Assembly: GCF_014884995.1 (NCBI RefSeq)
Contig: NZ_JABMII010000004.1
Coordinates: 317,504 to 341,503 of the forward strand
Direction of reading: 5' to 3'
Source of the DNA: Spirabiliibacterium pneumoniae
GTDB taxonomy: Bacteria; Pseudomonadota; Gammaproteobacteria; Enterobacterales; Pasteurellaceae
DNA length: 24,000 nt
Positions 16,191 through 17,867 of the stretch are shown in pieces (within the stretch, counting starts at the first letter, position 1; each line of letters starts with the position of its first letter). The notes below the pieces were generated by a model. It ran no database searches. It had not been told where the DNA came from and saw only the letters and a program-made list of their open reading frames with translations. The position numbers were made by a program, and so were the translations under genes.

Positions 16191-17867
16191 ATGAAAAAAG
16201 ACAACGCATTAAAATTTACACTTACAGTTGCTGCTTCTGTTCTATTAGCAGCCTGTGGGTCATCTGGCGATGACAATAGTAATCCAGAACCTGCTAAAAC
16301 AACAGCAGAACAAGTTGCAAAACAAAAAGCAGAAGCTGCGGCTGCTGCAGCTAAGGCTAAAGCGGAAGCTGAAAAAGCCGCTGCTGAAGCGAAAGCTAAA
16401 AAAGAAGCTGCAGAAAAAGCTGCTGCCGATGCAAAAGCAAAAGCAGAGAAAGAAGCTCGTGAAGCGGCCAAAGCTGCTGAAGAAGCTGCCGCAAAAGCTA
16501 AAGCATTATCTGAAGCAAATGAAGCTAAACAAAATTCTGATGTAGGTTATAAAGTTGTCAGCAAAACAAACTCTGACTTTATCGTTGACGGCCGCGCACC
16601 TGCTCGCAATTCAGAAGCGGGTACCCTTTCAGGAATGCAAGTACAAAATCCTGAAAAAAGTTTAGATACTTTGGTTATCGCTGCACCAACACAAGGTGGA
16701 AAAGTGGTTGCTTATGTGGAAGATTTTGATTTCACAGCACAAAAAGACGGTAAAGCAAATCTCGAGCATGTCTATGTTAATGAAAGTACATTAAATGGCG
16801 AGAAACGTGACAAAGTAGAAAATGAACTTGGCAATATTACTAAGACTGCAACAAAAGGCGGAAAAACCGCAGTTGCTTATGTCTTTGAAGATGGCCGTAA
16901 AGATTACACTGGTGTAGCGGGTCGAATTAAAGCTGACGAAGCGAAAAATGACCAATCAGTTGCGGAAGTTTACGGTAACCGCACTATGGCAAAAGATGCT
17001 GCAAACTTGCCATTAGTTGATGCTAAAGATGGACGTTACGAAGACGGTAAACTGACAAACGTTCAATATGGTCGTGTAACTACGCAATTAGATGCGAAAC
17101 AACGTGGATTACACGGTGATAAAGGTCTAGATGGTCAATTTAAACGAGGCGTTAATTTAGGTAAGGATATTAAATCCTATGTTGTTGACTACTCTGAATT
17201 CAATAAAGACAGTAAAGAAGATAACTACTTCTATCGTGGTGTCGATAATACCACAGGTGCAAAATTAAAAGAATTTGGCTATGGCAAAGAAGGCGTATTA
17301 AGCTATCAAGGTCATGCTGTGACTTACGGTTTGGATAACAATTTCCACGAACCAAAAGTAGAAAAGAATGTGAATGCGCCAACCGCACTTCAAGGTGTTA
17401 AACCTGAAGATGCACCAAAACTTATTAGTGGTACTCACGTTAGTGCAACTGTAGATTTGGCGAAACGCTCTGTAACAGGTGAGCTTTACAACAACTTTGA
17501 AGTGAAAAAAGAACAAGTTAAAGATACGCTTGTTACCTTTAAAGGTGATTTAAAAGCTAATGGTAATGTGAAAAATGGTACTTCAGAACTGGTTTATGCT
17601 GATGCTAAAGCTGCAAATAAAGCAGGTACATTTGAAGCTACACTATTTGGTAACGATAAGGTAACTAACACCGAATTGGGTGGTGCAGTTGCAAGTAAAA
17701 ATGGTGATGCGGATAAAAAATGGGGTGCTGTATTTGGTGCAGAATACGTTGGTGATATTCCAAAAGCCCAGCCTGCGCCACAGCCTAAACCTCAACCAAA
17801 ACCTCAGCCAAAACCTGAGCCATTGAATCCTTTAAAACAAATTGAAAATGCTACTGTGAATCCATAA
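16191..17867 (+). CDS. Surface lipoprotein with a TbpB-like handle plus C-terminal 8-stranded beta-barrel domain. It is a predicted Slam-dependent surface lipoprotein.
   Basis: The signal peptide carries the lipobox LLAA|C (Cys22, tgt 16254-16256). Residues ~37-116 form an Ala/Lys/Glu-rich helix. The C-terminal part has the TbpB/fHbp-type barrel signature: SYQGHAVTYG...GTHVSATVDLAKRSVTGELYN...TLVTFKGDLKANGN...GTFEATLFGN...ELGGAVAS...WGAVFGAEY. The gene sits directly upstream of a DUF560 gene. Confidence 0.8.
   Translation: MKKDNALKFTLTVAASVLLAACGSSGDDNSNPEPAKTTAEQVAKQKAEAAAAAAKAKAEAEKAAAEAKAKKEAAEKAAADAKAKAEKEAREAAKAAEEAAAKAKALSEANEAKQNSDVGYKVVSKTNSDFIVDGRAPARNSEAGTLSGMQVQNPEKSLDTLVIAAPTQGGKVVAYVEDFDFTAQKDGKANLEHVYVNESTLNGEKRDKVENELGNITKTATKGGKTAVAYVFEDGRKDYTGVAGRIKADEAKNDQSVAEVYGNRTMAKDAANLPLVDAKDGRYEDGKLTNVQYGRVTTQLDAKQRGLHGDKGLDGQFKRGVNLGKDIKSYVVDYSEFNKDSKEDNYFYRGVDNTTGAKLKEFGYGKEGVLSYQGHAVTYGLDNNFHEPKVEKNVNAPTALQGVKPEDAPKLISGTHVSATVDLAKRSVTGELYNNFEVKKEQVKDTLVTFKGDLKANGNVKNGTSELVYADAKAANKAGTFEATLFGNDKVTNTELGGAVASKNGDADKKWGAVFGAEYVGDIPKAQPAPQPKPQPKPQPKPEPLNPLKQIENATVNP
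17784..17819 (+). repeat. Three imperfect tandem 12-nt units (CCNAAACCTSAR) encoding (PKPQ/E)3 within a Pro-rich C-terminal tail
   Basis: The units read cctaaacctcaa / ccaaaacctcag / ccaaaacctgag. They sit within the tail IPKAQPAPQPKPQPKPQPKPEPLNPL (17757-17864). Confidence 0.8.

Follow-up and report, generated by a model that had tools for sequence, protein, structure and literature searches.

What kind of protein is encoded at positions 16191-17867 of this DNA from the Pasteurellaceae bacterium Spirabiliibacterium pneumoniae, how would it reach the cell surface, and what would it do there? We analyzed a 24-kb window (24,000 nucleotides of contig NZ_JABMII010000004.1, positions 317,504 to 341,503), in which this open reading frame (ORF) specifies by translation a lipoprotein precursor of 558 amino acids (aa) and is followed by a gene for an outer membrane translocon of the Slam type (type 11 secretion system, T11SS). 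The two genes very probably form a module made of a Slam-dependent surface lipoprotein of Pls-like architecture and its cognate Slam. What is new here is the modular head of the lipoprotein, with its family-specific effector domain, and a run of 17 guanines (G17) in the promoter that varies among relatives. Positions given below are those of the window, and all features of the module and its boundaries lie on the forward (+) strand.

The C-terminal barrel and the head

The barrel domain of the lipoprotein, encoded at 17286-17747, relates it to established Slam cargo. When the C-terminal fragment is searched alone, it matches PF01298 (TbpB_B_D) at aa 366-518 (E 3.5e-13, 50.6 bits against a cutoff of 26), and a profile built from 55 homologs finds the barrels of both the N-lobe and the C-lobe of TbpB among PDB sequences (E 1.7e-08). 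AlphaFold2 (AF2) models were obtained for the full-length protein, with a predicted local distance difference test score (pLDDT) of 82.4 and a predicted template modeling score (pTM) of 0.77, and for aa 116-523 (pLDDT 89.1, pTM 0.91); both contain eight long strands at aa 369-519 with pLDDT >90. Foldseek searches against the PDB ranked TbpB, the LbpB N-lobe, fHbp and the NHBA barrel on top, at a probability of ~1.0, with HpuA near the bottom of the list for the full-length model. An earlier sequence-only reading of this DNA had proposed a C-terminal eight-stranded barrel of the TbpB/fHbp type and had named a Foldseek search on an AlphaFold model as a check; the barrel is borne out by these results. 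By analogy with other cargo, this barrel is presumed to be the Slam-targeting domain.

The whole-protein Pfam scan had missed PF01298 and returned low-complexity matches only, most likely because the stalk triggered the composition-bias filter of HMMER. The matches returned when the whole protein was scanned against Pfam, NCBIfam and, with phmmer, the PDB (TolA, Borrelia P83) were accordingly rejected as compositional, the barrel emerging once the stalk is left out.

The barrel is preceded by a pedestal, or handle, at aa ~286-365 (17046-17285), recognized by its invariant columns. Conserved motifs run through both parts: VQYGRVT (291-297) and NYFYRGV (345-351) in the pedestal, then YQGHA (372-376), VDLAKRSVTGEL (421-432), FKGDL (450-454), GTFEATLFG (479-487), ELGG (495-498) and WGAVFGA (511-517). 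The motifs listed by the sequence-only reading are all present, and most are invariant in alignments of 55-64 homologs. Its description of a TbpB-type handle is only partly sustained: the beta-rich region with VQYGRVT and NYFYRGV exists, but aa 119-365 (~245 aa) is much larger than the classical handle and matches neither TbpB_A nor TbpB_C of Pfam at E<=10. The Foldseek TM-scores (TMt) were ~0.4 for the LbpB N-lobe and for fHbp, and 0.59 for the NHBA barrel in isolation; since the whole head superposes so loosely on the solved lobes, the term overstates the likeness outside the barrel.

This large region includes a domain of its own. Cardiobacterium paralogs match the head only at aa ~288-517, and because they share only the pedestal and the barrel, aa ~116-285 (16536-17045) can be set apart as a separate, family-specific N-terminal beta effector domain. 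Its invariant residues include Y175, E177, T217, E259, Y261, G262, T265, N272 and P274. It had neither a Pfam match nor a PDB sequence relative at E<=10. When 1.84 billion proteins were searched exhaustively with a profile, it was recovered in 72 representative clusters, nearly all of 480-870 aa and with the domain in the same position; of seven long members examined, four showed a TbpB_B_D barrel at the C-terminus in whole-protein scans. The three weakest matches to the domain (P0212, P0219 and P0220) were dismissed as unrelated repeat proteins. As judged from sequence comparison, pedestal plus barrel is a unit common to otherwise different lipoproteins; the effector domain would be mounted on this unit and is the probable ligand-binding part.

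Cardiobacterium hominis offers another use of the same unit. In strain NCTC10426 (L020), tandem lipoproteins of 1003 and 1124 aa (1269-4280 and 4367-7741) combine an unrelated N-terminal region of ~750 aa, rich in W, Y, N and P, with a VQYGRVT...NYFFRGV pedestal and a barrel. No Slam gene is adjacent to this tandem pair, and at least four loci of this kind are present in C. hominis (L020, L022, L030 and L031).

The adjacent Slam gene

The gene downstream, at 17933-19414, encodes a Slam/T11SS outer membrane translocon with a signal peptide, an N-terminal tetratricopeptide repeat (TPR) region and a C-terminal DUF560 barrel. The assignment, which the sequence-only reading had anticipated in pointing to a downstream DUF560 gene, rests on matches to PF04575 (SlipAM/DUF560; E 1.1e-65) and PF24575 (TPR_Slam; E 1.9e-25). 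The mechanically called ORF opens at a TTG at 17921 (MGRCM...). The alignment with Spirabiliibacterium falconis indicates that the true start is probably the ATG at 17933, 66 bp past the lipoprotein stop codon; a product initiated there would begin with a normal signal peptide, MTKISLLYLAILSALTSTALA, and a GGGA stands 8 nt before this ATG. The Slam is 84% identical to its S. falconis neighbor; this species is the closest sequenced relative, with a shared gene order and a lipoprotein head that is 71% identical.

The short space between the two genes holds a hairpin with a 12-bp stem followed by a T-run (17886-17912; -19.1 kcal/mol, z -3.2). It is kept near-perfectly in S. falconis, where a single loop base is changed, while the flanking coding sequence has diverged. 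The hairpin may be a partial terminator that sets the ratio of cargo to translocon, or it may stabilize the mRNA 3' end; it probably attenuates read-through into the Slam gene, which would lower Slam expression relative to that of the cargo.

Anchor, stalk and tail

The N-terminus of the precursor reads MKKDNALKFTLTVAASVLLAA and then CGSSG. It consists of a signal peptide (aa 1-21) and the lipobox L-A-A-C (16191-16256), LLAA|C conforming to the pattern [LVI][ASTVI][GAS]C at Cys22, with Gly at position +2. L19, A21 and C22 hardly vary among 55 homologs. Cys22 would be the acylated N-terminus of the mature lipoprotein (536 aa, 57.0 kDa), as the lipobox implies.

A short flexible tether follows (aa 23-38, GSSGDDNSNPEPAKTT; 16257-16304), with pLDDT <50 for residues 13-38. 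The stalk itself, aa 39-113 (16305-16529), is composed to 89% of Ala, Lys and Glu (49%, 21% and 19% of its 75 residues), and imperfect 27- and 42-bp tandem repeats encode it. AF2 models it as one helix, mostly at pLDDT 90-96. Oppositely charged residues are paired 18 times at i/i+4 against three times at i/i+3, and only 2 of the 75 residues are hydrophobic. The stalk is thus predicted to be a rigid single alpha-helix, of ~11 nm if an ideal 75-residue helix is assumed; a coiled coil was rejected given the scarcity of hydrophobic residues and the dominance of i/i+4 salt-bridge pairs. Tether and stalk together, from Cys22 to the head, span 96 aa here, 49 aa in S. falconis and 25-144 aa among homologs, in which this region reaches up to 52% Ala.

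At the other end, a Pro-rich tail (aa 520-558; 17748-17867 including the stop codon) carries PQPK repeats and ends in NPLKQIENATVNP. It is 29% Pro, disordered in the model (pLDDT <50) and partly encoded by a 12-bp tandem repeat present 3.5 times at 17781-17822. The tails of homologs are 20-53 aa long and close with a semiconserved motif, P.WG..TD.N or NPL.Q.EN. Lipobox, stalk and tail are therefore all as the sequence-only reading had described them. Across the aligned homologs, however, the stalk and the Pro-rich tail appear as family-wide features of variable length and are not peculiar to the product of 16191-17867.

Comparison with known Slam cargo

Grossman et al. (Microb Genom 2025, PMC12282271) distinguish some ten architectures of T11SS/Slam cargo in their survey. 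Its "Pls-like" class, with 173 lipoproteins and 20 soluble proteins, follows a plan of a long alpha-helical A/E/K repeat, a beta handle or pedestal and a C-terminal eight-stranded barrel (PMC12282271). The Haemophilus parahaemolyticus Pls (525 aa) was displayed on the surface of E. coli only with the T11SS protein TepS, with ~40% of cells positive, and was also released into the culture supernatant; APJL_1740 of Actinobacillus pleuropneumoniae is cited there as a Pls homologue (PMC12282271). The latter, annotated "tolA2", is a lipoprotein that is immunogenic and in which EAEAKAKA occurs 15 times (Cao et al., Sci Rep 2020, PMC7012816).

The S. pneumoniae pair shares with Pls (STO63610.1) and TepS (STO63613.1) the lipoprotein plan, the A/E/K helix, the pedestal, the TbpB_B_D-type barrel, a nearby DUF560/Slam gene and the Pasteurellaceae host. 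The sizes also agree (525 aa and a predicted 56.8 kDa for Pls; 558 aa and a mature mass of 57.0 kDa here). The Slam gene is directly adjacent here, whereas the H. parahaemolyticus accession numbers suggest two intervening genes. The window contains strings (KEAREAAKAAEEAAAKAK) that are related but not identical to the EEARKA-type repeat motif of the Pls-like class. Set against the available account of Pls (PMC12282271), the Pro-rich tail and the poly-G tract, the latter in three lineages, stand out as features of the present family. The published link of Pls to the Staphylococcus aureus Pls, which lies in a low-complexity repeat, is regarded as a compositional similarity and not as functional evidence. 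The sequence-only reading had taken the domain combination to be undescribed. At the level of architecture this fails, since the Pls-like class was published in 2025, and more than 250 clusters related to the head already exist under generic annotations.

TbpB and LbpB, Slam-dependent lipoproteins with a homologous barrel, are the best overall fold matches, but the differences are substantial. Here there is one PF01298 match and one barrel in the models, against two in TbpB, no TbpB_A or TbpB_C signature, no adjacent TbpA or LbpA gene and no Fur box. The long helical stalk and the C-terminal tail likewise differ from TbpB, in which the anchor peptide is short and flexible and the chain stops with the last strand of the barrel.

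A second set of relatives, fHbp of Neisseria meningitidis, PmSLP-1 of Pasteurella multocida, HpuA and NHBA, are stand-alone lipoproteins that join a variable N-terminal domain to an eight-stranded barrel. PmSLP is encoded beside its own Slam, and the roles of these single-lobe proteins are host-factor binding and immune evasion; PmSLP-1 is a stand-alone Slam cargo that binds complement factor I (PMC11526892). A long nonglobular N-terminus is frequent in this group, with ~95 disordered residues in PmSLP-1 and a long disordered region in NHBA. The present protein departs from it by a head of ~400 aa with an extra effector domain, in place of ~240-300 aa, and by a spacer predicted to be a rigid helix instead of a disordered linker. 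PmSLP-1 had no sequence match in the PDB profile search and was not among the top Foldseek matches.

Hemophilin, to which the sequence-only reading had also likened the protein, is a poor parallel. Hemophilin/HphA hemophores are secreted without lipidation, carry an N-terminal heme-binding clamp and are usually encoded near their receptor gene, and the T11SS survey describes hemophilins as soluble cargo. The present protein has a lipobox and a 536-aa mature form with no neighboring receptor; nor was any hemophilin or HphA structure found within the top 50 Foldseek matches.

Proposed export pathway and function of the head

A pathway from synthesis to surface display is well supported by analogy with these systems. 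After export through Sec, the precursor would be lipidated at Cys22 and processed by signal peptidase II, as the lipobox implies, and Gly at +2 would let it pass by Lol to the outer membrane under established lipoprotein sorting rules. As with TbpB/Slam1 and Pls/TepS, Skp would keep the cargo unfolded while the adjacent Slam recognizes the C-terminal barrel and threads the protein across. In the published mechanism, cargo is kept in an unfolded state by Skp and crosses the membrane through Slam as the translocon, and TbpB with a C-terminal tag is still detected at the surface (PMC9090332). Once outside, the lipid anchor and the ~11-nm helix would hold the ~400-aa head off the membrane, with the Pro-rich tail trailing from the barrel.

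What the head binds cannot be read from the sequence, and on this we agree with the sequence-only reading. Its role is most likely host interaction (binding of a host protein or glycan, adhesion or immune evasion), a preference of modest strength; compared with it, a co-receptor role in iron or heme uptake is less likely. Four observations favor host interaction: no receptor gene adjoins the module in the annotated loci, Fur-box matches are at background in 12 promoters, no hemophilin-like or TbpB-handle similarity was found, and promoter phase variation, discussed below, is typical of exposed antigens.

The alternative that survives best, though we consider it unlikely, is nutrient capture. 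The head would bind heme, a metal or a host iron carrier for an unlinked TonB-dependent receptor, either as a co-receptor of the TbpB/HpuA type or as a hemophore released from the surface. In its favor, phase variation is known for hemoglobin receptors such as hpuAB. The closest relatives in sequence and fold are TbpB and LbpB lobes, with HpuA lower, and according to the survey cluster-1 T11SS genes co-occur with metal and heme pathways, to which may be added the presence of Pls in culture supernatants as well (PMC12282271). Against nutrient capture stands the genomic setting: no TonB-dependent receptor was found among ORFs of >=150 aa in the 24-kb window, nor adjoining the module in the annotated related loci, so that the sequence-only reading was right to see a stand-alone protein and not half of a linked bipartite receptor. 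The best upstream Fur-box match was 10-12 of 19 positions in 12 loci, which is background. The protein points the same way, with an effector domain unlike the TbpB_A, TbpB_C or HpuA handles, a single lobe, and no hemophilin or HphA among its fold matches.

A poly-G tract in the operon promoter

The most distinctive local feature, which is not mentioned in the sequence-only reading, lies ~110 nt upstream of the lipoprotein ATG. There, the operon promoter (16046-16080) consists of a -35 element TTGACA (16046-16051), the bases aagtc, the G17 tract (16057-16073), an a and a -10 element TATAAT (16075-16080), giving a spacer of 23 bp. The G17 tract is the sole G or C homopolymer of >=8 in the window. 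In S. falconis the otherwise near-identical promoter and leader have G18. In Avibacterium avium, where the promoter reads TTGACT-tatgatttc-Gn-TAGAAT, two strains differ at the same locus, the tract being G14 in one and G10 in the other; the orthologous promoter of a tract-free relative, TTGACT-N18-TAAAAT, has an 18-bp spacer.

Because the tract lies within the spacer and its length is polymorphic both between and within species, a slipped-strand contingency switch suggests itself: the poly-G tract is probably a phase or strength switch for both genes, transcription from this promoter being switched or tuned as slippage changes the tract. Homopolymers in promoter spacers have such a role in N. 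meningitidis porA (poly-G) and opc (poly-C) and in Bordetella fim2/fim3 (poly-C, ~13-15). As in these cases, a G or C homopolymer of strain-variable length sits here between the -10 element and the -35 element or activator site of a surface-antigen gene. The tracts are longer here (G14-G18), the spacers of 23-24 bp are far from the optimum, and cargo and translocon are predicted to be controlled jointly. The recurrence of 23-24 bp spacers might reflect activator phasing, as in the Bordetella fim promoters, or a non-B-DNA mechanism. The long spacers could also represent deep OFF states or errors in homopolymer assembly.

Several points weigh against a Slam-dependent and switchable Pls-like module. 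Surface exposure, Slam dependence and switching alike rest on inference. H. parahaemolyticus and A. pleuropneumoniae are absent among the named homologs, including those of an Actinobacillus-seeded search and the cluster names, and what is shared with the H. parahaemolyticus Pls may be architecture only. The missing Fur box and linked receptor are compatible with nutrient capture through an unlinked receptor. As to the promoter, the spacers in three genomes (23, 24 and 23 bp) exceed the sigma-70 optimum by 5-7 bp; a simple ON/OFF scheme is odd because several slippage steps would be required, and homopolymer lengths in genome assemblies are unreliable.

These spacers are also the starting point of the alternative in which the tract has no regulatory role, being an assembly artifact or a neutral repeat, with constitutive expression from another promoter. 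A sigma-70 promoter would not work with spacers as long as 23-24 bp, a generic promoter scan, limited to spacers of 16-18 bp, gave no match at 16046-16080, and sequencing of long homopolymers is error-prone. We nevertheless judge this alternative quite improbable. In three lineages, and in genomes sequenced independently of each other, hexamers that are perfect or nearly so flank the tract, and the promoter around it is strongly conserved. Tract length differs from species to species and from one A. avium strain to the other, as slippage would leave it. The tract-free ortholog keeps the hexamers at 18 bp, and no second G or C homopolymer of that size occurs in the 24 kb. A putative slipped-strand switch thus remains our preferred reading of the tract. 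A metagenome scan for the poly-G promoter returned no matches.

The weakest alternative is an envelope protein that faces the periplasm, like TolA or "colicin import" proteins, names under which some homologs and APJL_1740 ("tolA2") are annotated. It has in its favor NCBIfam TolA matches on the stalk (E 3e-07), yet it is hardly credible and already contradicted by the predicted domain content, as these matches score 29.9 bits against a curated cutoff of 59.45 and cover the low-complexity A/K/E region alone, a lipobox replaces the TolA membrane anchor, and the protein has a TbpB_B_D barrel and an adjacent Slam.

Further candidates for control were sought around the promoter. The leader is predicted at 16087-16190 (~105 nt), with a ribosome-binding site AAGGAA at 16176-16181, and is near-identical in S. 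falconis by alignment. It gave no Rfam family above threshold, its folding is not significant (z -1.1), and RNAalifold across five loci found no supported consensus structure (-0.64 kcal/mol); neither a riboswitch nor a thermosensor is supported. An FNR/CRP-like dyad, TTGACgtatATCAC (TTGAC-N4-ATCAC), lies at 16011-16024, centered ~70 nt upstream of the predicted start site, and is kept in S. falconis. It scores 8/10, a value of >=8 being reached by 27% of random 330-bp windows; with a score within background we make no regulatory claim and treat the dyad as a lead only. The scan for Fur, FNR and CRP sites covered 12 promoters.

Related loci and chromosomal setting

The head is matched by more than 250 clusters at 90% identity, and NCBI names the family "transferrin-binding protein-like solute binding protein". 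Its members come mostly from Pasteurellaceae (Avibacterium, Aggregatibacter, Haemophilus parainfluenzae, Rodentibacter, Ursidibacter, Actinobacillus), with others from Alysiella, Conchiformibius, Cardiobacteriaceae and Psychrobacter. Of the related loci, 15 (from Pasteurellaceae, Neisseriaceae and Psychrobacter) have a complete Slam gene immediately 3' of the homolog. The loci listed as Slam-linked are L001-L006, L009-L012, L014, L015, L019, L035, L037-L040 and L042-L044, L003 being the S. falconis contig of L001. L007 has no Slam downstream of the homolog, the contig of L013 ends too early to judge the linkage, and L008 and L017 offer contig edges or fragments only, L008 showing the start of a Slam at its contig end. 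Since Slam-linked modules occur in several unrelated chromosomal contexts, the lipoprotein-Slam pair travels as a unit.

In A. avium L041 (UGSP01000001), an IS1595-family transposase gene at 7731-8384 splits the lipoprotein from the Slam, which are adjacent in the other A. avium strain (L042). A second A. avium module (P0006; L043 and L044) lies between Pirin and MOSC genes and lacks the poly-G tract; given its different position, the module occupies more than one chromosomal site in this species. In H. parainfluenzae T3T1 (L002, 9568-11070) the Slam is called as two ORFs, TPR at 9568-10242 and DUF560 at 10252-11070, and may be a pseudogene or reflect a sequencing frameshift.

The S. pneumoniae module is sharply bounded. 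Upstream, past a RidA-like gene, a terminator scan found a 33-bp hairpin at 15885-15917, with uptake signal sequence cores at 15887 and 15902; downstream, a second 33-bp terminator hairpin at 19422-19454 is a direct repeat of the first, with 100% identity. Each is an inverted pair of Hin-type uptake signal sequences, and the S. falconis module is flanked by an equivalent repeat pair (L001, 7696 and 11082). The paired hairpins could mark insertion or exchange boundaries of the module. Between them, the GC content falls to 0.35-0.42 (16000-19400) against ~0.44-0.54 elsewhere in the window, and uptake signal sequences number two in the 3.5-kb module against ~2.1 per kb elsewhere; the window as a whole contains 49 Hin-type copies, where 0.29 would be expected by chance, which marks it as Pasteurellaceae DNA. 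This AT-richness, the paucity of uptake signals and the bracketing hairpins indicate that the module was acquired horizontally with its own transcription signals.

The surrounding genes are of the housekeeping type. They include purT and luxS and genes for a HAD hydrolase, an alcohol dehydrogenase and a NarL-type response regulator, together with others named by synteny with S. falconis (cyaA, ornithine carbamoyltransferase, RidA, ldh, malQ and Fe-ADH). An operon at 4864-10973, unrelated to the lipoprotein, resembles E. coli yhfX-yhfW-yhfT-php-yhfS; its products are an alanine-racemase-like protein, a metalloenzyme, the YhfT membrane protein, a phosphotriesterase-family protein and a YhfS-like aminotransferase. 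In S. falconis, three genes for an ABC transporter (solute-binding protein, permease and ATPase; L001, 2289-6048) separate cyaA from the ornithine carbamoyltransferase gene; they are missing from the counterpart interval of the window (14181-14425).

Implications

The lipoprotein-Slam module opens no new category of biology. TbpB, fHbp, NHBA and PmSLP, all Slam/T11SS cargo, are proven virulence factors and vaccine antigens, and the present family is found widely among Pasteurellaceae, commensals and pathogens alike, that live with birds, rodents, bears and humans; H. parainfluenzae and Aggregatibacter are among them. The clean boundaries between stalk, effector domain, pedestal plus barrel, and tail can be used for the design of constructs. 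For vaccine use, caution is advised by the probably phase-variable expression in the Spirabiliibacterium and Avibacterium lineage. For annotation, the stalk is a pitfall, as it masks TbpB_B_D in whole-protein Pfam scans and draws false TolA or Pls names; this probably explains why comparable proteins are called "tolA2", "colicin import" or "Pls".

A bolder proposal, speculative and rather doubtful when both of its parts are taken jointly, is that the effector domain is a new ligand-binding module and that the G tract is a switch that goes beyond simple ON/OFF control by spacer length. If this were true, activator phasing or a non-B-DNA mechanism would co-regulate a cargo and its private translocon, the effector domain may recognize a host molecule conserved from birds to humans, and Slam cargo would gain a functional class beyond iron piracy and complement evasion.

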